NCBI GenBank assembly: GCA_963658405.1
Contig: CAVKQI010000003.1
Span: 60 to 64,059 of the forward strand
DNA length: 64,000 nucleotides
Direction: 5' to 3'
DNA from: a bacterium
GTDB taxonomy: Bacteria; Bacillota; Clostridia; Lachnospirales; Lachnospiraceae
A program made the translations under genes and the position numbers. The notes beneath the pieces were generated by a model. That model searched no databases. It saw nothing but the letters and a program-made list of their open reading frames with translations, and had not been told where the DNA came from. Shown piece after piece: positions 1,743-60,567 of the stretch (position 1 is its first letter; the number at the start of each line of letters is the position of its first letter).

Positions 1743-1766
1743 AGCAGTCCTTTCTGTATATTCCAA

Positions 1767-1903
1767 TACTTGCGCCGCTGCCTGTCGGCGTCAACGCGAA
1801 GGGAATTTCGCGCAGGCGAATTCTCCTCGAGCCCCCGAAGGATGACGCTTGCGTCATCCTTCGAGTGAGACAGAAAAGCTATCAGGCTTTTCTGTCTCAC
1901 TTG
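1767..1903 (-). repeat. Four-hairpin intergenic module (family 1), full copy
   Basis: It lies between the ATPase stop (1904) and the permease start (1742). Components are a degenerate hp1 at about 1772-1792, hp2 GGGAATTTCGCG/GGCGAATTCTCC at 1801-1826, hp3 CGAAGGATGAC/GTCATCCTTCG at 1836-1863, and hp4 AGTGAGACAGAAAAGC/GCTTTTCTGTCTCACT at 1864-1901. Confidence 0.8.
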
Positions 1904-14593: not shown

Positions 14594-14674
14594 TACAATG
14601 TCCTCCTATGCCGCTGCATTGCAGCGGCAGCGCGAAGGGAATTTCGCGTAGGCGAATTCCCTGATGCGATCCTC
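14594..14674 (-). repeat. Family-1 module, hp2+hp1 only, filling the gltB-gltD spacer
   Basis: hp1 TGCCGCTGC-ATT-GCAGCGGCA at 14609-14629 and hp2 GGGAATTTCGC/GGCGAATTCCC at 14637-14661. In sense orientation hp1 is followed by TAGGAGGACATTGTA-ATG (gltD). Confidence 0.85.
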
Positions 14675-17600
14675 TTAATCTAACTTGCCGCTCTTGACTG
14701 CGTAGAATGCTTCGATCTGTGCCTGCTCCGCAGACAGACCCTTCTCTTCCATTTCCACGATGGCAGAGAGCATCTTTTCATAGTCATGGGGAATGATCTT
14801 CTTAAATTTAGGCAGGTAGTCCTTGAAGTTGTCCAGGATCTCCTTGCCCTTTACAGAACCGGTGAGGGAGACATGCTCCTTGATGATCTCCTTCAGTTCC
14901 AGGACATCGTACTTGTTGGTCAGCTCATAGGAGGAAACCATTTCCTTATTAAGACGCAGGTAAAGGTCATTTTCCTCATCCAGCACATAGGCGATGCCGC
15001 CGCTCATGCCTGCAGCAAAGTTCTTGCCGGTGCGTCCTAAGATGACCGCACGTCCACCGGTCATGTACTCACAGCCGTGGTCTCCCACGCCTTCCACTAC
15101 GGCAATGGCGCCGGAATTTCGCACGCAGAAACGCTCGCCGGCCACGCCGTTGATAAAGGCCTTGCCGCTGGTGGCGCCGTACAGTGCCACGTTTCCTACG
15201 ATGATATTTTCATCCTGCTTAAAGGAAGCGCTCTTCGGAGGATACAGGATCAGCTTGCCGCCGGAAAGTCCCTTGCCGAAGTAGTCGTTGGAATCACCCA
15301 CCAGCTCCAGAGTCAGACCGCTGGGAATAAAGGCGCCAAAGCTCTGTCCGCCTGCACCGGTGCAGTGGATCCGGTAGGTATCCTCTGCCACATGCTCGCC
15401 TAATTTTCTGGTGATCTCGGAGCCCAGGATCGTACCGAAGGCACGGTCGGTATTCTTGACTTCTACTTCCATGCTCATGGGCTTGCCTGCTGCAATGGAC
15501 TTGCCCATCTGCTTAAGCAATACGCTCTCATCCAGGGTCTTTTCCAGATGGAAGTCATACTTCTGCTTCGGATCGTAGATGACCGCTACATCCTTTCTGC
15601 CCGCATAGGGGTTATCCAGGATATTGCCCAGGCTGATCTGCTTCTGGGCAGGGGTCAGATCCTCTCTTACCTTTAAGAGGTCACTGCGGCCCACCAGCTC
15701 ATCCACGGTGCGGACGCCCAGTTTTGCCATATATTCCCGGAGCTCCTGCGCGATAAAGCGCATGAAGTTCACTACGTATTCCGGCTTGCCGGAGAAGTTC
15801 TTTCGCAGTTCCGGATTCTGGGTAGCCACGCCCACCGGGCAGGTATCCAGGTTGCAGACACGCATCATCACGCAGCCCATGGTCACCAGCGGTGCCGTAG
15901 CAAAGCCGAATTCCTCGGCGCCCAGCATAGCCGCAATGGCCACGTCACGGCCGCTCATGAGCTTACCGTCTGTCTCGATGCGGACCTTATTGCGCAGGCC
16001 GTTCATGATCAGGGTCTGGTGGGTCTCCGCAAGACCCAGCTCCCAGGGAAGTCCCGCATTGTGAATGGAGTTGCGCGGTGCTGCGCCGGTACCGCCGTCA
16101 TAGCCGGAGATCAGGATGACCTGAGCGCCGGCCTTGGCTACGCCGGCTGCTACGGTACCTACGCCGGCCTCGGAAACCAGCTTTACAGAGATCCTCGCCT
16201 CTGTATTGGAGCTCTTTAAGTCATAGATCAGCTCTGCCAGATCCTCGATGGAATAGATATCGTGATGCGGCGGCGGAGAGATCAGGGCCACACCGGGTGT
16301 GGAATGTCTGGTCTTCGCGATCCAGGGATAGACCTTGCCTGCGGGCAGATGACCGCCCTCGCCGGGCTTTGCGCCCTGGGCCATCTTGATCTGGATCTCC
16401 TCGGCACTCACCAGGTAGCGGCTGGTGACACCAAAACGGCCGGATGCCACCTGCTTGATGGCAGAGCACCGGTTCTTTCCGTCCTTGCCTATGGTCAGGC
16501 GCTCTTCTTCCTCACCGCCCTCACCGGTATTGGACTTGCCGTGGATCATGTTCATAGCGATGGCGAGGGTCTCATGGGCTTCCTTGGAAATAGAGCCGTA
16601 GCTCATGGCGCCGGTCTTAAAGCGGGTCACGATGGAATCTACACTCTCCACCTCGTCGATGGAAATGCCCTTTGCCGGGAAATTAAACTCCATCAGGCCG
16701 CGGAGGTTGCGGATGGAATCCTCTCTGTTTACCAGAGCGGTGTACTGCTTGAACAGGTCATAGCTGCCGGTTCTGGTAGAAGTCTGCAGCAGATGGATGG
16801 TAGCAGGGTTGTACATATGCTCCTCGGCACCGCTGCGCATCTTATGATCGCCGATGCTGTTGAGGTTTAAGTCTACGGACAGTCCCAGCGGATCAAAGGC
16901 CTGGCTGTGACGATTCTCCAGCTCCTTCTCGATATCCTTCAGTGTGATGCCGCCCACACGGCAGACAGTATTGGTGAAATACTTATCGATGACGCTCTTA
17001 TCCAGACCGATGGCCTCAAAGATCTGAGAACCCTGGTAGGAACGGATGGTGGAAATACCCATCTTGGAAGCGATCTTGACGATGCCGTGGAGGATGGCAT
17101 TGTTGTAGTCATCCACAGCGGCATAGTAATCCTTGTCCAGCATGTGGTCCTCGATGGCCTCGCGGATGGTCTCCTGGGCCAGGTAAGGATTGATAGCGCA
17201 GGCACCATAGCCCAGCAGGGTGGCAAAATGATGCACGGAACGGGGCTCTGCGGATTCCAGGATCAGTGCCACGTTGGTGCGCTTCTTGGTATTGACCAGG
17301 TGCTGGTTTAAGGCAGATACCGCCAAAAGGGACGGGATCGCCACGTGGTTTTCATCCACTCCTCTGTCGGAGAGGATCATGATGTTGACGCCGTCTCTGT
17401 AGGCTCTGTCCACTTCCACGAAGAGATGGTCGATGGCCTTCTCCAGGCTGGTATGGGTGTAGTAGGTGATCGGGATCACCTCTACCTTGAAGCCTTCCTT
17501 CTTCATGTTCTTGATCTTTAACAGATCGGTATTGGTGAGAATGGGATTGTGCACTTCCAGCACATTACAGTTCTTGGGATTCTCCTCCAGGAGATTGCCC

Positions 17601-23506: not shown

Positions 23507-25447
23507 TTACTTCTGCTTCTCGTCCAGTGTCCGCATGGAATTAAGGATCGCCAGCACAGCTACGCCTACATCGGCAAAGACGGCGGCCCACATGTTGGCG
23601 ATACCCAGGGCACCTAAAAGCAGTACCAGGATCTTGACGCCTAAGGCAAATACCACATTCTGCTTTACAATGCGCAGGGTCTTCCGGGAGATCTTTACCA
23701 CGCCGGCGATCTTGCGCACATCGTCATCCATCAGGACGATATCCGCCGCCTCGATAGCCGCATCAGATCCCATGCTGCCCATGGCGATGCCGATATCCGC
23801 TCTGGTTAATACCGGCGCGTCGTTGATGCCGTCTCCTACGAACGCCACCTTATCCTTTTCATTTCTATCCTGCAGCAGCGCCTCTACTCCGGACACCTTG
23901 TCAGCAGGCAGCAGCTCTGCATGAAATTCGTCGATACCGATCTCGGAAGCCACTGCCGCCGCAGTCTCTTTCCGGTCGCCGGTGAGCATCACGGTCTTTC
24001 TGACACCCACAGCCTTCATATCGCGAATGGCCTCGGCTGCCCCTTCCTTAATGGTATCGGAGATCACGATGCAGCCCTGATAGATGCCGTCGGCTGCCAC
24101 ATAGACTACCGTACCGGCACTGCTGCATTCTTCACAGGCAATGCCATGATCCGTAAGCAGAGAGCTGTTCCCCAGAAGTACCTTCCGGCCGTCCACTACG
24201 GCTGACAGGCCGTGACCGGCAGTCTCCTGCGCCTCTTCTACTCTGTCTGTATCGAGCTTCTTTCCGTAGGCTTCCCGGATGGATTCTGCAATGGGATGGG
24301 TAGAGAAAGCCTCTCCCAGGGCCGCCAGTTCCAGTAAGGCAGCCTTTTGCTCCTCCTGCTGCTTCGTATCCAGTACCTGCTGACCGCCATTTGTTTTTCC
24401 GGCAGGTCTGATCTCCGTGACCTTGAATTCTCCCTTTGTCAGGGTGCCGGTCTTGTCAAAGACAATGGTAGAGACCTCTGCCATGGCCTCCAGATAGTTG
24501 CTTCCCTTTACCAGCACGCCGATCTTCGAAGCGGCGCCGATGCCGCCGAAGAACCCCAGAGGTACGGAAATGACCAATGCACAGGGGCAGGAAATAACCA
24601 GGAATGTGCAGGCTCTCTGGATCCAGTCTGCCCATACGCCGATCCCGGCGCCCGCAAAGAGCATCAGGCAAATCGGCGGCAGGACAGCCAGGATCACCGC
24701 ACCGATGGTCACGATGGGCGTATAGTATTTGGCAAAGCGGGTGATGAAATTCTCCATCTTTGCCTTCTTGCTGCTGGCATTTTCCACCAGTTCCAGGATC
24801 CTGGCTACCGTGGAATCCTCATAGGCCTTGGTGACGCGCACCTTCAGGGTGCCGCTGCCGTTTAAACATCCGCTGATGATGGGATCTCCGGTCTGCACCT
24901 TGCGCGGCACGGATTCGCCGGTCAGAGCGGCTGTATCCACAAAGGAACTGCCCTCCGTCACGATACCGTCCAGCGGTACTCTCTCTCCGGCCTTGATGAC
25001 GATGATGTCATCGATCTGTACATCGTCGGGATCCACTTCCTCCAGTGTGCCGTCCTTTTCCAGATTTGCGTATTCCGGGGCGATATCCATCATGGCAGTA
25101 ATGGACTGCCGGGACTTGCCCACCGCATAGCTCTGGAACAGCTCTCCCACCTGGTAGAAGAGCATGACGGCCACGGCCTCCAGATACTCCTGTACGCCGA
25201 ACGCGCCAAAGGTGGCGATCATCATCAGGAAATTTTCATCGAATACCTGCCCGTGGCGGATATTGATAAAGGCCTTCCGCAGTACATCGTATCCCACAAT
25301 CAGATAAGGCACCAGATAAGGGATCATCCGAAGCCATCTGTTGGAAATCTGCTCCATGGTGCCTGTCTTATCCAGGATAAGCAGGATCACAAACAATACC
25401 AGAGAGATCAGTATCCGCTGCAGGGACTGTTTCTGTTTTTTTGTCAT
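23507..25447 (-). CDS. P1B-type heavy-metal-translocating ATPase (Cd/Zn/Co type, CadA/ZntA-like), without an N-terminal HMA domain
   Basis: The start was moved to MTKKQKQS (GGAGA 5 nt upstream). Motifs are the TM6 CPC (SCPCALVIS), DKTGTLT and VGDGINDAP. Confidence 0.9.
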   Translation of the reverse strand: MTKKQKQSLQRILISLVLFVILLILDKTGTMEQISNRWLRMIPYLVPYLIVGYDVLRKAFINIRHGQVFDENFLMMIATFGAFGVQEYLEAVAVMLFYQVGELFQSYAVGKSRQSITAMMDIAPEYANLEKDGTLEEVDPDDVQIDDIIVIKAGERVPLDGIVTEGSSFVDTAALTGESVPRKVQTGDPIISGCLNGSGTLKVRVTKAYEDSTVARILELVENASSKKAKMENFITRFAKYYTPIVTIGAVILAVLPPICLMLFAGAGIGVWADWIQRACTFLVISCPCALVISVPLGFFGGIGAASKIGVLVKGSNYLEAMAEVSTIVFDKTGTLTKGEFKVTEIRPAGKTNGGQQVLDTKQQEEQKAALLELAALGEAFSTHPIAESIREAYGKKLDTDRVEEAQETAGHGLSAVVDGRKVLLGNSSLLTDHGIACEECSSAGTVVYVAADGIYQGCIVISDTIKEGAAEAIRDMKAVGVRKTVMLTGDRKETAAAVASEIGIDEFHAELLPADKVSGVEALLQDRNEKDKVAFVGDGINDAPVLTRADIGIAMGSMGSDAAIEAADIVLMDDDVRKIAGVVKISRKTLRIVKQNVVFALGVKILVLLLGALGIANMWAAVFADVGVAVLAILNSMRTLDEKQK

Positions 25448-25459
25448 TCTAATCTCCAT

Positions 25460-25617
25460 TCCGTAGGCGTCCGCGCCGGAGGAATCGCAAACCGAATCAA
25501 AGATTCGCTTCAGCGAATCTTTGATTCGGTTTGCGCTCAGGGCTATTTGTGACGCCTACGACACAAATAGCTGTGTACCCAATACGATAGCGATCGTATT
25601 GGGTACACTTCTCTCCT
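25460..25617 (-). repeat. Cluster of long perfect hairpins between the HMA gene and the ATPase gene
   Basis: 23-bp perfect stem at 25487-25534. Outer arms are CGTAGGCGTC (25462-25471) and GACGCCTACG (25551-25560). Hairpin GCTATTTGTG/CACAAATAGC (25542-25571) has the outer right arm as its loop. A 16-bp perfect stem GTGTACCCAATACGAT/ATCGTATTGGGTACAC lies at 25573-25608. Confidence 0.85.
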
Positions 25618-25836
25618 TTACCGAAGAATCCTGCAGTCCGGCTCTACTTTGGCGCAGACCTTCACCACTTCGTCCATGATGGCATCAAACTTCTCATCCA
25701 CTGCATCCACGGTCATCTTCTGCATCAGAAAGTTTACCGACGCGTCATTGACACCGTCGATCTTCTTGATGGCATCCTCCATCTTTGCAGCGCATTCTGC
25801 GCAGTCCAGGTCCTCGAGCTTGAATTTCTTTTTCAT
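25618..25836 (-). CDS. Stand-alone heavy-metal-associated (HMA) domain protein
   Basis: 72 aa with the ferredoxin-like HMA pattern and metal motif LDCAECAAK (CxxC). Confidence 0.8.
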   Translation of the reverse strand: MKKKFKLEDLDCAECAAKMEDAIKKIDGVNDASVNFLMQKMTVDAVDEKFDAIMDEVVKVCAKVEPDCRILR

Positions 25837-26010
25837 ACTTACCTCTTTCTGCCGCTGCTTTGCAGCGGCTGCATGAGGAGAATTTCGCGAAGGCGAATTC
25901 TCCGATGTGATCCTCCATGGATGACGCTTCCGTCATCCATGGGTTTGCAGGAAATGCCATCGGGCATTTCCTGCAAACTTGCCTCCTTCTGCCGCTGCTT
26001 TGCAGTGGCC
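25837..26010 (-). repeat. Family-1 module, full copy flanked by two hp1+SD copies
   Basis: Plus-strand order: hp1 at 25851-25869, hp2 GGAGAATTTCGCG/GGCGAATTCTCC at 25877-25903, hp3 CCATGGATGAC/GTCATCCATGG at 25915-25942, hp4 TTTGCAGGAAATGCC/GGCATTTCCTGCAAA at 25944-25977, and a second hp1 at 25991-26009 abutting the cadC-like stop. Each hp1 is followed in sense orientation by AGAAAGAGG or AGAAGGAGG. Confidence 0.85.
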
Positions 26011-26496: not shown

Positions 26497-27450
26497 CTAT
26501 TCCCTGATCAGCTTAAATACCGCGGAATGGGAATAGGTCACGCTTTCCGTATGGGCGAAAAGCACCACACCGGAAACCGGCGCTGTGATCTGGGTAAGCA
26601 AAGACGCATCCAGGGTGCTGTCGATCTGTGCCAGGATCTGGCCCTGCTGCACATACTCGCCGGGCTTTACATAGCCATGGAAGAATCCGGCTCTGGGTGC
26701 TCTGACCGTGATAAGATCCTCATCCTCTACGATCTTTGACTGTGCCGGCCTGTAGTCGCTGTATGCTGCTTCCTTTTCCTCGTCCAGGGCGGTGAGCAGA
26801 CCCGTCTGTTTCATAAAGTGCAAAATGGCAGAGACCGCCTCCTTGCTGCTCTTTCGATCCACCGTCTCCGTATTGGTGGTATACAGGGAAAAGGCATCCG
26901 TCTCCCAGATCTGCCAGTTGTAATTCAAGGTCGTGGTATCAAAGGGTCTGGGTTCTCTGACCATCACGTAAGGAAGACCGAATGCCCCGGCCAGCTCCTT
27001 ATTCTCAAAACCTGTCTTCATCACCCGGATATGGGGCATAAAGGAACCCTTCATGTAAAAAGAGGCGAACTGGATCCCCATGCGGTACTCTTTGATGCCC
27101 TCAAAGATTCCTGCGGCGATCCGCTGCGTGGTCTCCCCGGCGTCATAGCCGGGAAACATACGGTTGATGTCTGTATTGTCGATAGACCAGAACCGCTTCT
27201 TGATATTGAGCGAGGCGGGATTAGCACAGGGAATCACCAGGATCTCCTTGTCCTTTGCAAGTTTGCCCTCTGCCTCCAGTTCCTTAAGGCGCCCTGCCAG
27301 ATGCGCCGCCGTATACAACTGCTGATATTCATTGCCCCGCAGACTCCCCAGGACACAGAGTGCCTTTTCGCCGCTGCCGAAGCTAAGACCTTCTACCTTG
27401 AATTCATCCCGATATAAAGGATGAAAGGAATATATGATTTCTTTTTTCAC
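26497..27450 (-). CDS. AstE/AspA-family (succinylglutamate desuccinylase/aspartoacylase-like) protein lacking the zinc-ligand histidines
   Basis: The start was moved to GTG 27450 (VKKEIIYSF), after AGAAAGGGA. It is a paralogue of 27582..28502. GSLRGNEYQQ replaces GVHGDELEG, and IQFASFY replaces DIHASNIF. Confidence 0.65.
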   Translation of the reverse strand: MKKEIIYSFHPLYRDEFKVEGLSFGSGEKALCVLGSLRGNEYQQLYTAAHLAGRLKELEAEGKLAKDKEILVIPCANPASLNIKKRFWSIDNTDINRMFPGYDAGETTQRIAAGIFEGIKEYRMGIQFASFYMKGSFMPHIRVMKTGFENKELAGAFGLPYVMVREPRPFDTTTLNYNWQIWETDAFSLYTTNTETVDRKSSKEAVSAILHFMKQTGLLTALDEEKEAAYSDYRPAQSKIVEDEDLITVRAPRAGFFHGYVKPGEYVQQGQILAQIDSTLDASLLTQITAPVSGVVLFAHTESVTYSHSAVFKLIRE

Positions 27451-27581
27451 ACTTTCCCTTTCTATGCCGCTGCAGCACAGCGGCAGCATGCAGAGAATTT
27501 CGCGTAAGTGCATTCTCCGATGTAAGCCCTGCGGATGACGCCTACGGCATCCATGGGGATTACATCCTGCAGGTAAGCTCC
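27451..27581 (-). repeat. Family-1 module, partly degenerate
   Basis: hp1 TGCCGCTG-CAGCA-CAGCGGCA at 27465-27485, an hp2 remnant (GAGAAT/ATTCTC arms) at 27493-27517, and an hp3 remnant ..GGATGACG..CATCC.. at 27526-27557. Confidence 0.7.
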
Positions 27582-28502
27582 TTATTGCTTCAGAATCCTT
27601 CCCATCAAAGAGCCTACCTGCACCACCGGATATTCCCGGGTGGTAAACAGAAGACCCTCATGCTCTGCCTTTACAGTGCAGAGCTTTTCTCCGGAAAGAG
27701 GATCCACCAACACGCCCAGCACGGTGCCGGGCTGTACTCTGCTGCCCACTTCTTTTTCTTTGATGAAAATACCGGAAGCCGGTGCATTCAAAAAATCCAC
27801 CGCATCCGGCCGGTTGGAGACCAGGGGCTTTCGCACCGGGCAGTCCTCTCCCTGCCAGATGCCCATTTCCTTCATGGTATGCATAAGGCCGTCCACCAGC
27901 TGTATACCGTATTCTCTGGTAATGCGCATGCCTACACCCATCTCCACCACCAGAGTAGGCGTGCCCCGGCTGTTCAGGCTGTAGGCCAGCGTGGATTCCA
28001 GCACGGTGGAATTCTGGTGCACCCAGATAAAGTCCACATTCATCTGGGCCGCATAGGGCAGAAGATTCTTCTCATGGAGCTCATTGATGCGGATCTGCGG
28101 CATCTCTGTCAGGAAAATATTGCTGGCATGGATGTCCACCACCAGGTCTGCCCCCTGCAGATCCTCCAGGATCTCATCGGCGATATGCTCGTACATATCT
28201 CCTTCCTCGGAGCCGGGAAAGATCCGGTTCATATCGAGGTCAAAGGCCGGCAGTCCCCGCATAATGGTATCGATTCCCATGGGATTCATGGCTGGATAGA
28301 TATCCACGATGCCGGATAGAAGCTCCGGTGCCTCCTGCAGTCGTCTGGCCAGCTCATAGGCCACAAACTGGCCTTCCAGTTCATCCCCGTGCACGCCGGT
28401 GACGACACAGATCCGCCTGCCGCCTTCCTTCCCCAGCCGGTTCTTTCGAATACACAAATGCTCACAGACCGGCAATTCTACGCTTGTAATGGTTTTTATC
28501 AT
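27582..28502 (-). CDS. AstE/AspA-family zinc deacylase/carboxypeptidase-like protein
   Basis: 306 aa with the HxxE motif GVHGDELEG and a second His in VVDIHASN. Confidence 0.75.
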   Translation of the reverse strand: MIKTITSVELPVCEHLCIRKNRLGKEGGRRICVVTGVHGDELEGQFVAYELARRLQEAPELLSGIVDIYPAMNPMGIDTIMRGLPAFDLDMNRIFPGSEEGDMYEHIADEILEDLQGADLVVDIHASNIFLTEMPQIRINELHEKNLLPYAAQMNVDFIWVHQNSTVLESTLAYSLNSRGTPTLVVEMGVGMRITREYGIQLVDGLMHTMKEMGIWQGEDCPVRKPLVSNRPDAVDFLNAPASGIFIKEKEVGSRVQPGTVLGVLVDPLSGEKLCTVKAEHEGLLFTTREYPVVQVGSLMGRILKQ

Positions 28503-33044: not shown

Positions 33045-33138
33045 GAAAGAAAAGCCATCCGGCTTTTCCTTCAAACCTGCCCCCTTGCCGCAGTATGCTG
33101 CGGCAGCACAAGGAGAATTTCGCACAAGCGAATCCTCC
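33045..33138 (-). repeat. Family-1 module (hp2, hp1 and an extra hairpin) after argS
   Basis: Extra hairpin GAAAGAAAAGCC/GGCTTTTCCTTC at 33045-33072, hp1 TGCCGCAG-TATG-CTGCGGCA at 33086-33105, and hp2 GGAGAATTTCGC/GCGAATCCTCC at 33112-33138. Confidence 0.75.
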
Positions 33139-33155
33139 GATATGATCACGAAAGT

Positions 33156-34934
33156 TTACATTCTCTCCGGTGCCTCAAAGCCCAGCGTATGAATGCATGT
33201 AGTCAGTGTGCGCTCTGTAAGAGAGAGCAATGCGATCCAGGATGCCTTCTTTTCCGCATCCTCTTCGGTCAGGATCTTGGTGGCATGGTAAAAGCTGTTG
33301 AAAGCATTGGACAGCTCATAGATATAAGCGCAGAGCTTATGCGGTGCAGTCTCCTCGTAGGCAGTGCGCATCACGGCATTGAACTGTGCCAGCTTCATCA
33401 TCAGATCCTTTTCCAGGCTGCTCTGCGCGCTGCAGATGGTAAGTCCGGAGAGATCCTCTATGCCGCTCTGCTCCCTGTACTTGCCAAGTATCGACTTGAT
33501 CCGTACGATGGTATAGAGGATATACGGGCCGGTATCTCCCTCAAAGGAGGTAAACCGCTCCATGTCAAAGACATAATCCTTGCTGGCCTGGTTGGAAAGG
33601 TCTCCGTATTTAAGCGCTGCCAGTGCCACCTGCTTTGCCGTCTTTTCCGCTTCCTCATCGCCGATCTCCGGATTGCTGCGGATCTTTCCCAGCATCTCTT
33701 CATTGATATCTGCAATGAGGCGCTCTAAGCGCATGACACCGCCCTCTCTGGTCTTAAAGGGCTTGCCGTCCTTGCCGTTCATGGTGCCGAAGCCGATATG
33801 CTTTAATACGGTATTCTCCTCTGTGAGGCCGCACTTTTTCGCGCAGCGGAATACCTGCACGAAGTGCAGCTCCTGGCGCTTGTCTGTGACATAGATGATC
33901 TCATCGGGATGGAAACGCTCGGTGCGCTGGAGAATGGTCGCCAGGTCAGTGGTGGTATACAGGGAAGCGCCGTCGGACTTAAGGATGATGCAGGGCGGGA
34001 TCTCCTTGGCATCTCCGGGGTCTGTCACATCTACCACCAGGGCGCCGTTGCTCTCGTAGGCATAGCCGCCCTCTTTCATCTTTTCTACCATAGGCGGGAT
34101 GGCGTCATGGGCATCGGACTCCCCCAGCCACAGATCAAAGTCCACATCCAGGTTGGCGTAGTTCTTTTTCATATCGGTGACGGAGACCGTCACGATCTGC
34201 TTCCAGAGAGCACGGAATCCCCGCTGTCCCTCCTGGAGACGGTGGGTATTGTCCATGGCCTCTGCATAGTAGGCCTCGTCCTCTTTGGACTTCTTGCTGG
34301 CAAAGGGATAGATCTCCTCTAACTCTGTCACGGTAAAAGGTGCCTCTGCGGGATACTCGCCTTCAAAGCTCTCATCGAAATAGGGGAGCTCCGGCTTTCT
34401 TCTCTTCAGCTCGGTGATGATCAGACCCATCTGCAGGCCCCAGTCTCCCAGGTGAATATCGCTGACGACATTCTCCCCGTTAAATCTGGCAATGCGCTTG
34501 ATGGCCTCGCCGATGACAGCGGAGCGCAGGTGCCCTACGTGCAGGGGCTTGGCCACATTGGGTCCGCCGTAGTCGAGCACGATGGTCTTGGGATTCTCAG
34601 AGCCGGACAGTCCCAGCTTTTCCTCTCCTGCCATTTTTCCCAGATACTCTGCCAGGAAACTTTCTTTGATCCGCAGATTCAGAAAGCCCGGTGCGACAGC
34701 CTCTGCCATGGAGAAAATGCTCTCCGGCTTTTCCTTCAGCTTATCCGCCACTTCTGCGGCGATCACAAGGGGTGCCTTATGATAGCGCTTTGCGCCGGCC
34801 ATGGCCCCGTTGCACTGGTATTCGCACAGATCCGGGCGGTTGGAGGTGCCCACTCTTCCGAGGTCTGCGTCATAACCTGCTGCCGCAAAGGCATCTGCCA
34901 TCTCCCGTGAGATGATATCCATTAATTTATCCAA
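33156..34934 (-). CDS. argS: Arginine--tRNA ligase
   Basis: Class I HIGH-type motif PLHVGHLRS plus the anticodon-binding DALR-type C-terminus. The start is uncertain: TTG 34934 (GGGGGA 5 nt upstream) or ATG 34922. Confidence 0.9.
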   Translation of the reverse strand: MDKLMDIISREMADAFAAAGYDADLGRVGTSNRPDLCEYQCNGAMAGAKRYHKAPLVIAAEVADKLKEKPESIFSMAEAVAPGFLNLRIKESFLAEYLGKMAGEEKLGLSGSENPKTIVLDYGGPNVAKPLHVGHLRSAVIGEAIKRIARFNGENVVSDIHLGDWGLQMGLIITELKRRKPELPYFDESFEGEYPAEAPFTVTELEEIYPFASKKSKEDEAYYAEAMDNTHRLQEGQRGFRALWKQIVTVSVTDMKKNYANLDVDFDLWLGESDAHDAIPPMVEKMKEGGYAYESNGALVVDVTDPGDAKEIPPCIILKSDGASLYTTTDLATILQRTERFHPDEIIYVTDKRQELHFVQVFRCAKKCGLTEENTVLKHIGFGTMNGKDGKPFKTREGGVMRLERLIADINEEMLGKIRSNPEIGDEEAEKTAKQVALAALKYGDLSNQASKDYVFDMERFTSFEGDTGPYILYTIVRIKSILGKYREQSGIEDLSGLTICSAQSSLEKDLMMKLAQFNAVMRTAYEETAPHKLCAYIYELSNAFNSFYHATKILTEEDAEKKASWIALLSLTERTLTTCIHTLGFEAPERM

Positions 34935-47550: not shown

Positions 47551-49089
47551 TTACTGCGGCTTCGCGCTGTCAATTGCCTTCTTATAAGGCGCCATCATGC
47601 CTTCGTTCATGGCATTGTTCTGCTTTTCCATGAGCTTCGTATGCCGCATCATAAAGCCTACCAACTGCATCATCAGCATTCGTCCCCGCTGTTTCTGCGG
47701 GAAGTCGTAGATGCCGTGCTTTTTATAGAATTCGTGGTCAGCCTTCATAAAGCCCCGCATGACCCAGATCAGATCCCGGAATATCTTCATGCCGCCCACG
47801 CCGTAGAAATTTCTGGGCTGCAGGTATTGATGCTCCAGCGCATAGCGGAGCCTGGAGAGCATAACCTGATCAGAGGAGAAATCCGTACCCACCCCAGCCA
47901 GGAAATTGTGTCCCACATCGCAGCGGGCTTCTATGACGGTGCGCAGGTTGGGCTCTCTCTCATAATCGCCGCAGACGATATAGCCAAAGGGCATGCCTTC
48001 CGTCACGGTGCGGTGACCATTGCAAAACTGGCGGTCGTCATACATCTTGAAGGTCGGCCCCATGGAATGGTCCTGAATGGTAAAGGCGTAGACGATGGCC
48101 GCATTGGTCTGGATCTGCTCCCGCAGGAAGGCATCGAATCCGTCTGTATAGACGCACTTCCCGGAAGCCGCGCAGTGAAAGCAGCCAAGGCAGCCGCCCT
48201 GAAAGGGATACTCTGCCAGGTTGATGAGTCTGGTGGGAAGGGGACAGGCCTGTCGGAAGGCCTCAATACGGGCCCTGAGGGCATTATCATCTTTTCTTAA
48301 ATCTGCAACGATAGCGATTGATTTGTTCGAACCATCAGCTGAATTACCACTGGCACGCGTTTTGTTTCCGGCACGCGTTTTGTTTCCGTCCCTGCTGCTT
48401 TCTATGGAAGCCTCTTTCTTATTGCTTTCTTTACTGTCTTCATTATTATATTGGTTATTGTCCTTATTGTGATCCTCGTCGCTATATTGGCTGCTGACTC
48501 CGCATTCATCTTTGCTGCTGCATGCATGATTATCTTCTTTGATATCTCCGCTGATAAGTTTCTCAGAAGATGCAGCCGGCTGCGCAGCAGTCAGGGGTGC
48601 TTTCTCACTGATCCCGTTTTCCACGCACCAGAGCACATAACGGAAGAAAGAGACCGCATCCTCCTGGCCTTTCTTTGTGGTGAGATCATCCATATCTGCA
48701 GACAGGCCGTGGATCACTCGCATGCCCAGATCAAAGCAGTTGTCTTCCACATAGCGATGGGCTGTCACATCATAAAAATGTTTGGAGGTGGTAATCTGGG
48801 TGACGAATTTCCCGGAGAGATCGGCGCCGCTTTCCTTTAAAAGCCGGATAAAGCGGTGCAGCTGACTGGGTGCTAAGAATGTATAGACCGGATAGGAAAA
48901 GATGATCAGATCTGCCTCGTCCATGGCCTTTAAAGCAGGCGTTAGATCCTTTTCCAGAGAGCGGATCTGAGCCGCCGCCAATACATAGGTAAAACTGTGC
49001 TGCGGAAAACATTTCTCCAGATAGCAGCTGGTCATGGATGTGATGGAATATATTCCTCTGGGGGAACCGTTCAGAATGCAGATTTTCAT
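47551..49089 (-). CDS. Two-domain flavodoxin-fold / NAD(P)H-dependent oxidoreductase-like protein with a low-complexity linker
   Basis: 512 aa. The N-terminus MKICILNGSPRG.. is of the FMN-reductase type. The second half carries GGCLGCFHCAASGKC. The linker is rich in N/D/K/S. Confidence 0.6.
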   Translation of the reverse strand: MKICILNGSPRGIYSITSMTSCYLEKCFPQHSFTYVLAAAQIRSLEKDLTPALKAMDEADLIIFSYPVYTFLAPSQLHRFIRLLKESGADLSGKFVTQITTSKHFYDVTAHRYVEDNCFDLGMRVIHGLSADMDDLTTKKGQEDAVSFFRYVLWCVENGISEKAPLTAAQPAASSEKLISGDIKEDNHACSSKDECGVSSQYSDEDHNKDNNQYNNEDSKESNKKEASIESSRDGNKTRAGNKTRASGNSADGSNKSIAIVADLRKDDNALRARIEAFRQACPLPTRLINLAEYPFQGGCLGCFHCAASGKCVYTDGFDAFLREQIQTNAAIVYAFTIQDHSMGPTFKMYDDRQFCNGHRTVTEGMPFGYIVCGDYEREPNLRTVIEARCDVGHNFLAGVGTDFSSDQVMLSRLRYALEHQYLQPRNFYGVGGMKIFRDLIWVMRGFMKADHEFYKKHGIYDFPQKQRGRMLMMQLVGFMMRHTKLMEKQNNAMNEGMMAPYKKAIDSAKPQ

Positions 49090-49790
49090 TTTATCCTTTC
49101 TGTGCCGCTGCAGAGCAGCGGCAGCGCGAAGGGAATTTCGCGAAGGCGAATTCCCTGATGCGATCCCTGAGGATGAGGCATAGCCTCATACTCGCAATGC
49201 CTTAAAATGACATCAGTCATTTTAAGGCATTTGTTTCCTTTCTGTGCCGCTGCAGCGCAGCGGCACCCTGAGGAGAATTTCGCGCAGGCGAATTCTCCGA
49301 TAGGATCTCAGAGGATGAGGCAAAGCCTCATCCTCGTAATGACATAAAATGACATCAGTCATTTTATGTCATTTTTTCTCCTTGCCGCTGCAGAGCAGCG
49401 GCAGCGCGAAGGGAATTTCGCGAAGGCGAATTCCCTGATGCGATCCCTGAGGATGAGGCATAGCCTCATACTCGCAATGCCTTAAAATGACATCAGTCAT
49501 TTTAAGGCATTTGTTTCCTTTCTGTGCCGCTGCAGCGCAGCGGCACCCTGAGGAGAATTTCGCGCAGGCGAATTCTCCGATAGGATCTCAGAGGATGAGG
49601 CAAAGCCTCATCCTCGTAATGACATAAAATGACATCAGTCATTTTATGTCATTTTTTCTCCTTGCCGCTGCAGAGCAGCGGCAGCGCGAAGGGAATTTCG
49701 CGAAGGCGAATTCCCTGATGCGATCCCTGAGGATGAGGCATCGCCTCATCCTCGTAATGCCTTAAAATGACATCGGTCATTTTAAGACGT
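49090..49790 (-). repeat. Tandem array of five family-1 four-hairpin units (2.5 x 280 bp)
   Basis: hp1 starts at 49103, 49245, 49383, 49525 and 49663. Segment 49103-49382 is identical to 49383-49662. In unit 1, hp1 is at 49103-49123, hp2 at 49131-49155, hp3 at 49169-49193 and hp4 at 49197-49230. Confidence 0.9.
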
Positions 49791-50739
49791 TTATTGCCTT
49801 TCGCACGGCTGCCTTATATTCCGGCATGCGCTGTGCCTTGCGGATCTCTTTGGCCAGGGAGGCGCCGTCCGGGCGTCCCTGAAGCATGAAATTCCACAGA
49901 TCCTTCATCTTAAAAAGGACATTCCTGTCATCGCCGATCACTTCCTGATATCGGCTCACCAGTGCATCGTGGAATTCCCGGAAGCGGTCATCCATAACCG
50001 GTACGGACACATTCTCTGCTTTTTCTACCTTCTCTGCCAAGGCGGGATCCCGCAAAAGTCCCCGTCCGATCATGACGGTCTCTGTCTGCGGAAAAGAAGC
50101 GGCAAACTCCTGCACCGCCTGCAGATCAAAGAGGTCCCCATTGTAAACCACCGGATTTTTGCTTTCCTGCAGGATCTCCCGGAAGACATCCAGGTGCACG
50201 GCACCTTTGTAGAATTCCTTCTGCACTCTGGGATGCACGATCAGTTCCTTTACCGGATACTGATTATAGATCTGCAATAGTCTCTCCCACTCCTGCGGAT
50301 CATTTCTGCCGATCCTGGTCTTGATGGAAACGGCAAACGCTCCCGCCGCCACAGAAGGATCTTTATAGATCTCATCTAAGAACCGGTCCAGTTCCTCCGG
50401 AAAGCCGAGGAATCCTGCGCCCTTCTTTTTGGCAGCCACGGTGCCGGAGGGACAGCCCAGATTTAGATTGATCTCCGGATAGCCCATGCCGGCCAGGCGT
50501 TTTGCTGTCTCCAGAAAGCCGCCGGCGTGATTGGTGAGAATCTGGGGCACCACCGGCATGCCCTCATTATTTTCCGGCAGCACGTCCCGCATTTCCTTTG
50601 TGCTCAGCGGCTGGTCAGGACGGAGGGATACAAAAGGAGTAAAGTACTTTTCCACACCCTTATAATACCGGTGATGAAGCTGTCTGTAGGTATAGGTAGT
50701 GATCCCCTCCATAGGCGCAAAATAGATATGCATAGCCAT
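49777..50739 (-). CDS. tRNA-dihydrouridine synthase family protein
   Basis: The start was moved to MAMHIYFAPMEGIT (AAAGGA upstream). It has a TIM-barrel FMN motif ..EINLNLGCPSG.. The stop codon lies inside the last hp4 hairpin of the array. Confidence 0.8.
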   Translation of the reverse strand: MAMHIYFAPMEGITTYTYRQLHHRYYKGVEKYFTPFVSLRPDQPLSTKEMRDVLPENNEGMPVVPQILTNHAGGFLETAKRLAGMGYPEINLNLGCPSGTVAAKKKGAGFLGFPEELDRFLDEIYKDPSVAAGAFAVSIKTRIGRNDPQEWERLLQIYNQYPVKELIVHPRVQKEFYKGAVHLDVFREILQESKNPVVYNGDLFDLQAVQEFAASFPQTETVMIGRGLLRDPALAEKVEKAENVSVPVMDDRFREFHDALVSRYQEVIGDDRNVLFKMKDLWNFMLQGRPDGASLAKEIRKAQRMPEYKAAVRKAINVLK

Positions 50740-51744: not shown

Positions 51745-51921
51745 CTGCCGCCATCGCTGCGGCAAATCTGATTTCATTCTTACCTTACTATGCCGCTGCA
51801 AGGCAGCGGCAGCACGAGGAGAATTTCGCGCAGGCGAATTCTCCGATGTGATCCCGAATTGATGACGTATGCGGCATCAATTCGCGTTTGAAAGAAATGC
51901 CATCGGGCATTTCTTTCAAAC
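51745..51921 (-). repeat. Family-1 module, full copy plus an extra hp1-like hairpin
   Basis: Extra hp1-like hairpin at 51746-51764, hp1 at 51791-51811, hp2 at 51818-51844, hp3 CGAATTGATG/CATCAATTCG at 51855-51884, and hp4 GTTTGAAAGAAATGCC/GGCATTTCTTTCAAAC at 51886-51921, abutting the ribF stop. Confidence 0.85.
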
Positions 51922-52851
51922 TTAACTTCTGTGATAGGTTCTGCCTGCTGCCACATCTGCCTCCATGGTTCTCTGCAGTTCTTCCATGCCGGAAAATTTT
52001 CTCTCCGGACGGCGGTAGGTCAGCAGCTTCGTGACCGCCTCTTTCCCATAGAGATCTCCGTCAAAATCATAGAGGTAGGTCTCTACCGTGATGGGAGGCT
52101 GTCCCGGATGCTCCTGTCTGGAAATCGTGGGCTTGCGGCCTATGTTCGTCATGCCTGTGTATTCTTTTCCCTCGATCTCCACTCTGGAATAATATACGCC
52201 GAAGGGAGGCAGTAGCTTACTCTCTGCCGGTGTCTGATTGATGGTGGGAATCCCCATCGTCCGACCGAGTTCGTTGCCGTGACAGATCACGCCTTCCACC
52301 CGGTAAGGCTCTCCCAGCATGGCAGATGCTTTCTCCATCTGTCCTTTTTCCACGTATAGGCGGATCAGGGTAGAACTCACTTCCTGCCCGTCTATCTTTA
52401 CCTTTTCCACCTTTTCGGAGGAAAAGCCGTATTCCTTCTCAAGGCTGCGAAGAAGGGCGAAATCCCCTGCGCCCTTGTCGCCGAAGGAAAGATCACTGCC
52501 CGCTGCCACGAATCCGGCATGCATCTGTCCTGCCATGATCTCGCGGACGAAGGCTGTCGGCTCCGTGGCCGCGGTCTGTCTCGTCAGCGGAAATTCCACC
52601 AGATAATCGATGCCGATCTCAGAAAGCACATGCCGCTTTTCCTCCGGTGTCATCAGTTCCTTTACATCCCCTTTTCCGAAAAAAACGGCCGGAGAGGGAG
52701 AAAAGGTAAAGACCGCACTGCGCAGGCCTTCTCTTTTCTGAATGGTCTCCAGGATTTTTCGGTGCCCCAGATGTACGCCGTCAAATTTGCCGATGGCCAT
52801 GGCGGTGGGCTCTTCTATATGAAAGTCTGTTGTACCGGATATTATTACCAT
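51922..52851 (-). CDS. ribF: Bifunctional riboflavin kinase / FAD synthetase
   Basis: The start was moved to MVIISGTT. It has ..GKFDGVHLGHRKIL.. and a C-terminal riboflavin kinase domain. Confidence 0.9.
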   Translation of the reverse strand: MVIISGTTDFHIEEPTAMAIGKFDGVHLGHRKILETIQKREGLRSAVFTFSPSPAVFFGKGDVKELMTPEEKRHVLSEIGIDYLVEFPLTRQTAATEPTAFVREIMAGQMHAGFVAAGSDLSFGDKGAGDFALLRSLEKEYGFSSEKVEKVKIDGQEVSSTLIRLYVEKGQMEKASAMLGEPYRVEGVICHGNELGRTMGIPTINQTPAESKLLPPFGVYYSRVEIEGKEYTGMTNIGRKPTISRQEHPGQPPITVETYLYDFDGDLYGKEAVTKLLTYRRPERKFSGMEELQRTMEADVAAGRTYHRS

Positions 52852-53839: not shown

Positions 53840-53862
53840 ATCTGTACAAATAACCTTTCTGT

Positions 53863-53881
53863 GCCGCTGCCTTGCTGCGGC
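53863..53881 (-). repeat. Isolated family-1 hp1 (imperfect) upstream of truB
   Basis: GCCGCTGC-CTT-GCTGCGGC. In sense orientation it is followed by ACAGAAAGGTT..ATG. Confidence 0.6.
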
Positions 53882-53892
53882 TGTCTGCGGAT

Positions 53893-54849
53893 CTATGCCT
53901 TCTTTAACTGCATATCAATACTCTTGGAAAGATTATTGATGATGTCGTGGTAAGGCGCCGATGTGGTAAAGCCGGCCGCCCGCATGTGACCGCCGCCGCC
54001 GTAGAACTTGGCGACTGCCGATACGTCCACGCTGCCGTCGGAGCGAAGGCTCACCTTGTAGGTCAGCGGTGCCACCTGGTACATAAAGATCGCACACTTT
54101 ACGCCCTTGATCAGCTTAAGCTGGCTGGCGATGCCCTCTAAGTCCTTGGATGTCACCTGATAAAAATCCATGGTCTTGCGCTCGATGACGCTGACCACGC
54201 ACTGCCCGTCCATGAAGCGGATGCTCTCTAAGAGCGCTCTGCCAAGGATCTGGGTCTGCCAGTAGGTCTTTTCATAAAAGATGCCGTTGATGATGCTGGT
54301 GAAATCAAAGCCATAGGAAATGAGATCGCCGGCGGCCGTCATGGTCTCCTTCGTGGTATTGGAATACTTAAAGACGCCGGTATCGGTCATCATGCCGATA
54401 TACAGTGCCCTGGCAATGGGCTCATCTAAAAGGCTGTGATCCAGAAGACGGTATACCATCTCGCAGGTACTGCTGGCCTTCGGGTCCACTTCGTTCACAT
54501 CTCCGTCTCCGGAATTGGTCACGTGGTGGTCGATATTGATCTTTTTTGCTGCCCTGTCAAAAAACGGCTTCGCCTCCCCCAGACGATCTGCCGTGGTATC
54601 AAAGGCGATAAAGACATCATACTGCTCTATGTTCGTCTGAAAATCAGAGCGGATCTGCTCTGTCCCAGGCATGTATTCCCGGATGGCATCCGAAAAATCT
54701 TCCAGAAAGACATCGATCCTTGCCTCCGGCAGGAGCTTTTTCAGATACAGGCAGGTGCCCATGCAGGCGCCGATACAGTCTCCGTCCGGATGCTCATGGC
54801 CGCCGAGTGCAATGGTTTTTGCTCCTTTTAATTCTTCTGCTAAATTCAT
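53893..54849 (-). CDS. nrnA: DHH-family phosphoesterase (NrnA-like oligoribonuclease/pAp phosphatase)
   Basis: The start was moved to MNLAEELKG (GGAGG upstream). Motifs are HPDGDCIG, DHH (NIDHHVTN) and GGGGH. Confidence 0.8.
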   Translation of the reverse strand: MNLAEELKGAKTIALGGHEHPDGDCIGACMGTCLYLKKLLPEARIDVFLEDFSDAIREYMPGTEQIRSDFQTNIEQYDVFIAFDTTADRLGEAKPFFDRAAKKINIDHHVTNSGDGDVNEVDPKASSTCEMVYRLLDHSLLDEPIARALYIGMMTDTGVFKYSNTTKETMTAAGDLISYGFDFTSIINGIFYEKTYWQTQILGRALLESIRFMDGQCVVSVIERKTMDFYQVTSKDLEGIASQLKLIKGVKCAIFMYQVAPLTYKVSLRSDGSVDVSAVAKFYGGGGHMRAAGFTTSAPYHDIINNLSKSIDMQLKKA

Positions 54850-59267: not shown

Positions 59268-59288
59268 GCTGCTTCTGTTACCTCCATC

Positions 59289-59308
59289 TGCCGCAGTTTA
59301 CTGCGGCA
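59289..59308 (-). repeat. hp1-type hairpin upstream of ylxR
   Basis: TGCCGCAG-TTTA-CTGCGGCA. In sense orientation it is followed by GATGGAGGTAACAGAAGCAGC-ATG. Confidence 0.65.
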
Positions 59309-59337
59309 ACACTTAATCTGTATAGAAATCCGGAAGA

Positions 59338-60567
59338 TTATTCCTGCTCTTCCTCTGCGGTCTCTTCGACATCTTCTGCAGCAGATGCATCATCCTCTGC
59401 AAAATCTTCCTCTGTCTCCGATGCCTCGGAAGTCTCCTCGTCATATGCCTCCTCATCGTCAGCATATTCCTCGTCCTCTTCGTACTCGTCGTCCAGATAA
59501 TCCTCATAGCGGAAACCGGGCGCATCCTTTGCCTGGGTCTCGCTCTTGATGTCGATCTTGTAGCCGGTCAGTCTGGCTGCCAGACGTGCATTCTGTCCTT
59601 CGCGTCCGATGGCCAGGGACAGCTGATAATCCGGCACCACGACCTTGGCCGTCTTTTCTTCCGGATCAGCAAAGACTGCCACGATCTTTGCCGGGGAAAG
59701 GGCGTTCTGAATAAAGTTACCAGGGTTCTCATCCCAGTTCACGATATCGATCTTCTCGCCGTTTAATTCTTCCACGATGTTATTGACACGGGCACCGTTC
59801 ATACCTACGCATGCACCCACCGGATCCACATTGGGATCATTGCTGCAGACAGCGATCTTGGTGCGGCTGCCGGCCTCTCTGGCGATGCTCATGATCTCTA
59901 CCGTGCCGTCATGGATCTCGGTCACTTCCTGCTCAAAGAGTCTCTTTACCAGCTCCGGATGCGTACGGCTTACCATGATGCGGGGTCCCTTGGGAGTCTC
60001 TCTGACCTCCAGGATATAGACCTTGACTCTCTCTGTGGGACGCAGCACCTCACCGGGCACCTGCTCCTTCTCATTGAGGACGGCATCTGCCTTGCCCAGG
60101 TTGACAGTGATGCTCTTGGGCATGACGCGCTGCACGATACCGGTGACGATATCCTTCTGCTTTTCGTAGTACTCGGAATAAACGGCTCTGCGGTCCTCCT
60201 CGCGGATCTTCTGGAGCAGGACATTCTTGGCGATCTGGGTGGCGATGCGGCCGAAGGACTGGCTGTTGATCTTTACCTGCACCACATCTCCCACTGCTGC
60301 CGTGCGTCTGATCTCCTTGGCATCCTGCAGGGAAATCTCCAGCAGATCATCCTCTACATCCTCCGGCGTCTCTACGACAGTCTTCTCTGCATAGCAGCCG
60401 AAATCACAGGTGTCACGGTCGATTTCCACTCTTATATTATCTGCCTTGCCGTAGTTATTCTTGCAGGCTGTCAGCAGTGCATTCTCAATTGCCTCAAAAA
60501 GGGTATCCTTGCTGATATTTTTCTCTTTTTCCAGCGCATCCAAAGCTTCCTTGAGATCTTTATTCAT
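59338..60567 (-). CDS. nusA: Transcription termination/antitermination factor NusA
   Basis: The start was moved to MNKDLKEALD. It has the NusA N domain, S1 and two KH domains, and an acidic C-terminal extension. Confidence 0.95.
   Translation of the reverse strand: MNKDLKEALDALEKEKNISKDTLFEAIENALLTACKNNYGKADNIRVEIDRDTCDFGCYAEKTVVETPEDVEDDLLEISLQDAKEIRRTAAVGDVVQVKINSQSFGRIATQIAKNVLLQKIREEDRRAVYSEYYEKQKDIVTGIVQRVMPKSITVNLGKADAVLNEKEQVPGEVLRPTERVKVYILEVRETPKGPRIMVSRTHPELVKRLFEQEVTEIHDGTVEIMSIAREAGSRTKIAVCSNDPNVDPVGACVGMNGARVNNIVEELNGEKIDIVNWDENPGNFIQNALSPAKIVAVFADPEEKTAKVVVPDYQLSLAIGREGQNARLAARLTGYKIDIKSETQAKDAPGFRYEDYLDDEYEEDEEYADDEEAYDEETSEASETEEDFAEDDASAAEDVEETAEEEQE

Follow-up and report, generated by a model that had tools for sequence, protein, structure and literature searches.

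A four-hairpin repeat family at gene starts in gut Clostridia, with a five-unit array between a dus and a flavoprotein gene

A 64,000-nt stretch of Lachnospiraceae DNA (GenBank assembly GCA_963658405.1, contig CAVKQI010000003.1, positions 60 to 64,059; the whole stretch is called the window here) contains a tandem array of five structured units between a dus gene and a flavoprotein gene. Each unit carries four hairpins (hp1 to hp4) and a Shine-Dalgarno (SD) motif, and the array was found to belong to a dispersed and apparently undescribed family. The four hairpins are maintained by compensatory change, the orientation of the copies follows the gene, and strains differ by the gain, loss and shuffling of units and modules. 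This is probably a REP/BOX-like but ribosome-binding-site (RBS) anchored family of structured repeats of gut Clostridia, with the array formed by recombination-driven amplification, in variable number, of one lineage of it and with hairpins and SD serving as a barrier or insulator in mRNA. The array itself is an ordinary variable-number amplification and the interest lies in the family and its placement rule.

Array Between the dus and Flavoprotein Genes

Tandem Repeats Finder (TRF) described the array (49087-49802) as 5.1 copies of a 142-nt period with 82% matches, and also as 2.5 copies of a 280-nt period with 98% matches. A repeat search gave five head-to-tail copies of 140 nt beginning at 49103, 49245, 49383, 49525 and 49663. 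A preliminary description of the window, made from the sequence alone, had reported five units of about 140 nt with hp1 at these positions, and both searches agree with it. Its statement that a pair of unit variants, A and B, is duplicated without a mismatch also holds, as 49103-49382 and 49383-49662 are 100% identical. The four hairpins of each unit were found in the places it had given, those of its first unit being listed in Table 1 as the last unit in mRNA sense. On the minus strand each unit runs hp4, hp3, hp2, hp1 and then AAGGAG or AGAAAGGA. The A and B units differ, as described, by paired changes in hp2 (GGGAATTC/GAAATTCCC versus GGAGAATTC/GAAATTCTCC) and in hp4 (CCT/AGG versus ACA/TGT). 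The internal SD-like motifs, the two mini open reading frames (ORFs) ATG ACA TAA and ATG CCT TAA and the real ATG at 49089 are all present. Pfam identified the flanking genes as Dus (PF01207, 1.6e-35) and FMN_red (PF03358, 1e-09; flavodoxin-like), which bears out the location first given for the array. The hp4 at 49756-49791 codes for the final residues and the stop codon (49777-49779) of Dus.

Secondary Structure and Covariation

RNAalifold gave four hairpins and a 3-bp outer helix enclosing hp2 in an alignment of 28 units. Covariation strongly supports the four hairpins. Compensatory double changes are present in 32 of the 45 pairs. The proportion of paired cells was 96.3%, compared to 81% in shuffled alignments and 36-45% in slid controls, and the covariation score was 0.419 compared to 0.135 and at most 0.081, respectively. 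None of 500 shuffles came up to the observed value. The sequences of hp3 and hp4 are free to change while pairing is retained, and the loop of hp4 (YGAU) is also retained. In all 28 units hp2, which has the form GGAGAAUUCGCC-UNC-GCGAAAUUCUCC and one bulged A, is invariant, as is the single-stranded GAUC..AUC preceding it, and hp2 is the most conserved primary sequence of the family. Folding of a 296-nt stretch of the array gave -156 kcal/mol compared to -86 ± 4.8 in shuffled sequences (z = -14.8).

Position, Orientation and Module Composition

Covariance model (CM) R1 was built from the 28 units and run over the whole window without filters. DNA loci fetched from other assemblies, metagenome-assembled genomes (MAGs) among them, carry L-numbers here. 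A CM search of the full genome and of relatives had been proposed in the preliminary description. Run over the window and the fetched DNA, the CM returned further copies, with 158 matches in the fetched DNA and more than 130 copies in other Clostridia MAGs. A start codon on the same strand (ORF of at least 60 codons) was present at the 3' end of 94 of the 108 strong matches, with ATG at the exact model column in 61 of these 94. The exceptions inspected were internal array units, locus edges, short ORFs and a gap of Ns. One member of a second subfamily, described below, lies at the 3' end of a gene, ahead of a terminator.

The upstream neighbour was too noisy when defined by the longest stop-to-stop frame, due to shadow ORFs, and a stop-codon test was used instead. 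A same-strand ORF of at least 90 codons ends between -250 and +80 nt from the 5' end of the element (median -13) in 108 of 117 evaluable matches. The spacers are usually too tight for a terminator and a promoter, and the element must therefore share a transcript with the genes on both sides. Downstream of a terminator and a promoter-like TTGTTT-17-CATAAT lies one copy in L077, so the element can be the 5' leader of a primary transcript as well.

Almost all copies have the same sense as the gene downstream of them. L077 and L049 each have opposite-strand elements within one 8-kb locus, each element in the sense of its own gene. Orientation therefore tracks the gene and not the chromosome strand, and replication strand is ruled out as its cause. 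The flanked genes share no common function.

The hp1-SD end of the element is constant. The distal side may consist of hp1 only, hp1 and hp2, three hairpins, four, or four and part of a further unit, and single modules are also missing internally in some copies. The preliminary description proposed that the unit carries its own ribosome-loading site. An SD-like motif was found at 24 of the 25 internal hp1-to-hp4 junctions, and the SD is an integral part of the unit. A start-like triplet follows 3-9 nt past the SD in 19 of these 24 junctions (7 ATG, 11 TTG and 1 GTG), and the ensuing frames differ in length. The two-codon start-stop ORF that was also proposed exists in this array, but elsewhere the junction has TTG, a longer ORF or no start codon. 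A conserved start-stop mini-ORF is thus ruled out, and the two-codon ORF is incidental and peculiar to the Dus-flavoprotein array.

No terminator-like site was found on the sense (minus) strand between 48900 and 50000, while the plus strand of the array has five compared to 1.0 expected. An intrinsic terminator was rejected as the identity of the array, there being no GC-rich hairpin with a U-run on the sense strand and the terminator-like sites being on the plus strand only. Real terminators elsewhere in the window differ in appearance from the array hairpins. A sigma-70 promoter was likewise ruled out, as no sigma-70-like site was found in the array.

Variation Between Strains

Contigs of the same species were chosen by a Dabb protein identical to that of the window together with a 95%-identical flavoprotein, and a second set by an identical HMA protein. 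An exact-protein look-up gave no record identical to the flavoprotein or Dus of the window. The number of units in the Dus-flavoprotein spacer is one in L092, two both in L091 and in L088/L093, and five in the window. A comparison of strains for copy number and presence or absence had been suggested, and the family varied in both respects, at the array and at two other spacers. The shorter Dus-flavoprotein alleles are chimeras of A and B features, which fits unequal recombination between units. A compensatory change within the species is seen in hp4 (AATGCC..GGCATT versus AATTCC..GGAATT). The C-terminus of Dus, in the 5' arm of hp4 (49777-49791; L092:7080-7130), varies with the hairpin between strains (...INVLK* versus ...TNSLK*).

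In the window and in L097 a full unit fills the ribF-Dabb spacer. L093, L095 and L098 have its 3' part at their contig ends, and L091, L092, L094 and L099 have no unit there. The empty site has TTGAAAGAAAT once and retains an hp1-like hairpin, SD and ATG. In filled sites the left junction is GAAAGAAAT and the right junction is GAAAGAAAT (L093, L098) or GAATGAAAT (window, L097). The 9-nt GAAAGAAAT is the start of the hp4 arm of the element itself, which points to recombination between element segments and not to target duplication. In the window (51731-51795) an ATG comes after the SD of this unit, and the frame that it opens overlaps the true start of Dabb but is out of frame with it. This ATG is replaced by AAG in L093 and L098.

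The ArsR-HMA spacer has hp1-SD-hp4-hp3-hp2-hp1-SD in the window and L101, and a single hp1-SD with a different hp1 variant in four other assemblies. This second polymorphic site thus differs by a whole hp1 variant and is not a simple insertion. In the HMA-ATPase spacer whole hairpins are swapped, or deleted across stems, between assemblies. Copies therefore come and go within the species, and the suggestion that the element may be mobile stands to that extent. In a sister species with the same gene order (77% flavoprotein identity) no canonical unit was present at either orthologous spacer (best match 25.8 bits). Identity among the dispersed copies of one genome is 62-94% and is no higher than in the best matches between genomes; no two copies are identical, and nothing points to a recent burst. 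Several contigs from short reads stop within four-hairpin repeats.

Copies in the Window

Besides the array, the four-hairpin unit occurs at 8-10 other spacers of the window (Table 1). The hp1 and hp2 patterns recur there against a chance expectation of 0 matches, and the CM matches are all on the minus strand. All gene-like ORFs and the sole tRNA (44861-44932) are on this strand throughout the 64 kb.

Table 1. Array components and dispersed copies of the four-hairpin family in the window
Feature	Position	Strand	Score or basis	Remarks
Five-unit tandem array	49087..49802	-	TRF, repeat search, CM matches 107-140 bits per unit	
Array units in mRNA sense	A3 49802-49663; B 49662-49525; A 49524-49383; B 49382-49245; A1 49244-49090	-		
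Flavoprotein ATG	49089-49087	-		Directly after unit A1
SD AGAAAGGA	49094-49101	-		Between hp1 of the last unit and the flavoprotein start codon
hp1, last unit	49103..49123	-	Pattern search	TGCCGCTGC-AGA-GCAGCGGCA
Further hp1 copies	Starts 49245, 49383, 49525, 49663			
hp2, last unit	49125..49162	-		11-bp stem with one bulged base (49131-49155) and outer 3-bp helix
Outer 3-bp helix of hp2, last unit	49125-49127 with 49160-49162		Alignment, covariation	
hp2 core, further copies	Starts 49275, 49413, 49555, 49693			GAATTTCGCG-NN-GGCGAATTC (plus strand)
hp3, last unit	49169..49193	-		GAGGATGAGGC-ATA-GCCTCATACTC, one mismatch
Further hp3 copies	49311-49335, 49449-49473, 49591-49615, 49729-49753		Repeat search	
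hp4, last unit	49196..49231	-		16-bp AT-rich stem, loop YGAU in sense
Further hp4 copies	49338-49373, 49476-49511, 49618-49653, 49756-49791		Repeat search	
Full unit, degenerate hp1	1756..1906	-	CM 98 bits	
Truncated copy, hp2, hp1 and SD	14593..14675	-	CM match 14593-14741	
HMA to P-type ATPase spacer	25444..25614	-	CM 46 bits	Diverged three-hairpin relative
ArsR-HMA spacer	25833..26010	-	163 bits (CM match 25833-25984)	Full unit and extra upstream hp1-SD
Copy with hp3, hp2, hp1 and SD	27447..27584	-	CM 61 bits	Upstream of GTG start at 27450
Copy with hp2, hp1 and SD-like motif	33071..33166	-	CM 58 bits	
ribF-Dabb spacer, single full unit	51774..51927	-	CM 159 bits	Present or absent among same-species assemblies
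Solo hp1 and SD upstream of truB	53845..53893 (about)	-	Pattern search	
Solo hp1 and SD	59272..59338	-	CM 24 bits (weaker match 59272-59410)	

The truncated copy at 14593-14675 occupies an entire spacer, from the stop codon at 14675 to the ATG at 14593. The copy at 33071-33166 (minus strand) is followed by an hp4 (33047-33070) and then by the RBS of the gene itself. An HMA (CopZ-like) gene of 72 aa (25618-25836) lies between the ArsR-like and P-type ATPase genes, and both of its spacers are full of hairpin modules, which differ strongly from one assembly of the species to another. The host of the window belongs to an uncultured lineage of Eubacteriales, and its TruB has only 58-60% identity to the nearest named Lachnospiraceae or Eubacteriales proteins. 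Inside the flavoprotein gene an 18-nt perfect tandem repeat (GGCACGCGTTTTGTTTCC x 2.1) was found at 48352-48388. It lies in a low-complexity insert rich in S, N, K and D (residues about 165-265). Homologues of the flavoprotein are 426 to 512 aa long, which suggests that the length of this linker varies too.

Copies in Other Genomes

A scan of a genome collection with the hp2 core gave at least 87 stretches. Among the matches listed, most were from a few uncultured gut MAGs, the labels being Lachnospiraceae, 'bacterium', Clostridium sp. CAG:508, Acutalibacteraceae and Lachnoclostridium, and about a dozen from unrelated phyla lay inside genes and resembled chance. Tandem arrays of 2-3 units with 92-99% identity were found in L019, L079, L084 and L031, the three-unit ones having 98-99% identity. 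L047 has an array of 70 nt x 3.1 (6201-6415) with hp2 and hp1 modules only, lacking hp3, hp4 and the SD-like stretch.

A second subfamily (L017, L044, L052, L063, L075 and others; CAVKEB, DAIMKA and CALEFO MAGs) retains the hp2 core. It has three hairpins within a long-range helix (GGCAAAACCGC / GCGGATTTTGCC), and its SD (GAGG) is inside a small CCUC/GAGG hairpin beside the start codon. At L052 (7387-7681, minus strand) two tandem Clostridiales-1 motifs (RF01699; 116.9 and 66.2 bits, gathering score 48), a different repeat, are found at the same locus as the four-hairpin family. In L090 (3700-3860), a more distant relative, the upstream neighbourhood of the flavoprotein gene differs; in it a terminator comes after a 3' end that resembles that of a tRNA or tmRNA (GGTTCGAATCC).

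Proposed Role and Alternative Explanations

In the most economical model the unit serves as a barrier between cistrons and an insulator of the RBS, or is tolerated for doing so. Copies sit in the transcribed leader before the start codon, mostly between same-strand genes and sometimes just after a promoter-like site. In mRNA they would form a row of stable hairpins without a U-run, followed by a free SD. By analogy with known leaders and intercistronic stem-loops, the hairpins and SD-like sites probably block exonucleases and insulate the downstream RBS, so that neighbouring cistrons have separate fates. Five units would be a stronger or a neutral version of one. Having no sense-strand terminator, and supplying or preserving what would be an accessible SD, the unit would be tolerated in one orientation only. 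The reverse orientation would place a hairpin with a U-run (the five plus-strand sites) and an anti-SD in mRNA and would be selected against, and this counter-selection could alone explain the orientation rule. Candidate causes of the 3' anchoring at start codons are recombination seeded by RBS homology, a recombinase acting at hp1 and an RNA-templated route. The chimeric units, the repeat inside the element's own arm and the deletions across stems make turnover look homology-driven. This fits unequal or ectopic recombination together with hairpin-mediated slippage, a mechanism drawn from a few junctions.

Several observations weigh against the barrier and insulator model. The complementary strand of the array folds equally (z = -15.5 compared to -14.8). 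Among 99 distinct copies the stems have 110 G-U and 91 A-C oppositions (p = 0.2). With no G-U preference and equal folding of both strands, the hairpins could be kept at the DNA level, where they may be maintained by, for example, template switching within palindromes or a role as single-stranded DNA. The argument for a role at the RNA level thus comes from position and orientation only, and the possible mRNA processing, stability or translational-coupling cassette of the preliminary description gains no backing from a strand-specific G-U signal. The conservation of hp2, if real, hints at a specific protein partner that is outside the model, and its invariance is partly one of ascertainment since loci were found through the hp2 pattern. 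Presence or absence within the species, together with near absence in the sister species, speaks against the element being essential to the genes beside it. The exact number of five units comes from a single assembly with a perfect 280-bp duplication.

An unlikely alternative is that the family is purely selfish mobile DNA with no mRNA function, its hairpins being recognised by an HUH transposase (RAYT or IS200/IS605 TnpA type) or another recombinase. Here hp1 would resemble a recombinase core site, which flanks the unit on both sides in multi-unit copies, and the orientation bias would come from purifying selection alone, the reverse orientation giving terminators and an anti-SD in operon mRNA. 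The symmetric G-U and A-C counts and the equal folding of both strands are in its favour. HUH-type transposases recognise bulged hairpins, and the invariant bulged base in hp2 is reminiscent of this. The presence/absence polymorphism, the patchy distribution and the 9-nt direct repeat at one filled site are also as expected, and the terminator-like sites of the antisense strand would account for counter-selection of the other orientation. However, orientation tracks the gene and not the chromosome strand, and in most copies the distance between the 3' end and the start codon is fixed, which no known target rule of a transposase explains. The 9-nt repeat is part of the hp4 arm and so is no target duplication. 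The 62-94% identity of the dispersed copies, none of them identical, speaks against a recent burst. The unit also has neither terminal inverted repeats nor a GTAG or CGTC tag. No match below E = 1 was found by tblastn in about 750 kb with two Y1 transposase sequences, a crude and weak test, and the plasmid and phage collections gave no match.

On a more novel but rather doubtful reading, the family would be a self-propagating 'RBS cassette' with an SD, spreading from gene start to gene start and used by the host as a standard intercistronic insulator and processing module. The hp1-SD-start end would be anchored, and copying would proceed by ectopic recombination primed on RBS homology or through an RNA intermediate. 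Such 3'-anchored spread would account for a 3' end that is constant and a 5' end that is ragged. If true, this would be a class of element, mobile or semi-mobile, whose defining feature is a set of translation signals and not a transposase.

It is improbable that the element is a dedicated cis-regulatory leader in which hp2, with the hp4 loops, binds a global RNA-binding protein or RNase and so places unrelated genes in one post-transcriptional regulon. Consistent with such a leader, the sequence of hp2, its bulge and the flanking GAUC..AUC do not vary across the 28 units, which come from several genomes, whereas the other stems do. The element is found both between cistrons and just after a promoter-like site, and the second subfamily retains hp2 in a different multi-branch fold with its SD in a small hairpin. 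Set against this, the invariance is inflated by the hp2-pattern search, and the CM also found copies in which hp2 is diverged or missing. The genes beside the element share no function, the element is present or absent at the strain level and no candidate protein was identified.

That the element is real but its five-fold copy number an assembly artefact was judged very doubtful. The perfect 280-bp duplication, the same-species short-read assemblies with 1 or 2 units and the contigs that break within repeats would fit an artefact. Array-specific strings (the A-to-B junction and the array hp3) were absent from scans of a metagenome collection, leaving the five-unit form without independent confirmation. 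Short-read assemblers collapse such repeats, however, and do not expand them. The A3 unit differs from the others, the chimeric alleles of 1 and 2 units show that length variation is real, and three-unit arrays with 98-99% identity are present in other genomes.

Very little credence can be given to a function as terminators of antisense transcription, in which hp4 and the T-rich complement of the SD region stop opposing RNA polymerase: the plus strand has five sites where 1.0 was expected, but its T-richness is an automatic by-product of a purine-rich SD on the sense strand, hp1 to hp3, the fixed start-codon distance and the tandem amplification are left unexplained, and all genes of the window have the same direction so there is little to terminate.

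Implications

REP, BOX and ERIC have been known for decades and their spread and function are still debated. The four-hairpin family adds an unusually clean placement rule: reading in the sense of the gene, abutting the start codon, an SD in each unit and truncation by modules from the far side. The element is abundant, being found before roughly one gene start in six in the window. Several lineages of uncultured gut Clostridia carry it, and its differences between strains make it a possible ready marker for strain typing. It probably also causes contig breaks when gut metagenomes are assembled. With it one could ask, in a tractable system, whether repeats of this kind influence the stability and translation of operon mRNA or are simply tolerated. 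If the hairpins are kept at the DNA level, they would be a natural case of palindrome correction mimicking covariation, and a caution for RNA-motif discovery pipelines.

Comparison With Known Repeats and RNA Elements

The preliminary description did not recognise the element as a described family and the database searches agree. In Rfam 15 no family reached its gathering score on the element in the window or 11 loci. The best sub-threshold match was Pseudomonadales-1 (RF03046) at the array (30.4 bits, gathering score 68), and Clostridiales-1 (RF01699) gave no match to the element in this search. The A+B pair had no blastn match in plasmid and phage collections. Literature searches by sequence strings and keywords found no description of a four-hairpin family, and the main text of two candidate-RNA catalogues (PMC8040213, PMC5737381) does not mention it. 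With Pseudomonadales-1 and Clostridiales-1 the family shares the form of a multi-hairpin motif found by comparative genomics.

The array was initially called BOX/REP/BIME-like. The dispersed family that this implies was found, both in the window and as more than 130 copies elsewhere; the specific marks of REP and BIME were not. REPs are palindromes of 20-40 bp with a GTAG or CGTC tetranucleotide at the foot (PMC3733652). In the 28-unit consensus no conserved GTAG or CGTC is present at any hairpin foot, and CGTC is found only inside the hp3 arm of some copies. Units are head-to-tail and strong CM matches in a spacer share a strand, in contrast to the alternating orientation of REP/BIME. A MITE (miniature inverted-repeat transposable element) was rejected because the unit ends (hp4 start and SD end) are not inverted repeats and the 9-nt direct repeat belongs to the hp4 arm. 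A CRISPR array was rejected because the units are contiguous with no unique spacers, as first reported, and no cas gene was found among the six Pfam-scanned genes at 46360-53004 (Dus, FMN_red, hexapeptide transferase, Dabb, RibF and LytR), the rest being unscanned. With the tag and alternating orientation of REP/BIME and the defining features of MITE and CRISPR absent, the 'like' in the initial name matters.

The family resembles REP/BIME in being short high-copy palindromes in transcribed extragenic DNA, in forming composite arrays of variable number and in having a structure more conserved than its sequence. REP/BIME are single palindromes of alternating orientation, mostly 3' of genes and linked to RAYT, whereas here an untagged four-hairpin unit of about 140 nt is arranged head to tail, in sense with the downstream gene, and abuts the RBS, and no RAYT was seen in the roughly 750 kb covered by tblastn. 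REPs stabilise upstream mRNA in E. coli.

The BOX element of Streptococcus pneumoniae (boxA-boxB(n)-boxC) is also made of modular hairpin boxes in variable number and is intergenic in a Gram-positive host. The likeness is architectural only, and no relationship in sequence is expected. BOX has no known transposase and is suspected of influencing the expression of neighbouring genes. It is not tied to start codons or to one orientation and has no SD, and its internal box is repeated where here whole units are. ERIC/IRU and Correia (CREE) elements are likewise structured repeats co-transcribed with genes, and their orientation can alter mRNA stability or processing. They are single long imperfect palindromes, or have terminal inverted repeats and target duplications, and occur in either orientation. 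The four-hairpin family has neither terminal inverted repeats nor both orientations.

The closest functional parallels may be the Bacillus aprE leader and the cry3A STAB-SD, where a hairpin is directly upstream of an SD or SD-like sequences occur without a gene, and the Clostridium cellulolyticum cip-cel operon, where stem-loops between cistrons take part in selective RNA processing and stabilisation. Each four-hairpin unit is made up of just these components, and the proposed role takes them as its working analogy. In Firmicutes a stem-loop beside the RBS and SD-like sequences shield mRNA from 5' exonucleases, as in the aprE leader and cry3A STAB-SD, and intercistronic stem-loops set the differential stability of operon segments. 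The aprE, cry3A and cip-cel structures are unique and locus-specific, whereas the four-hairpin unit is a repeat family.

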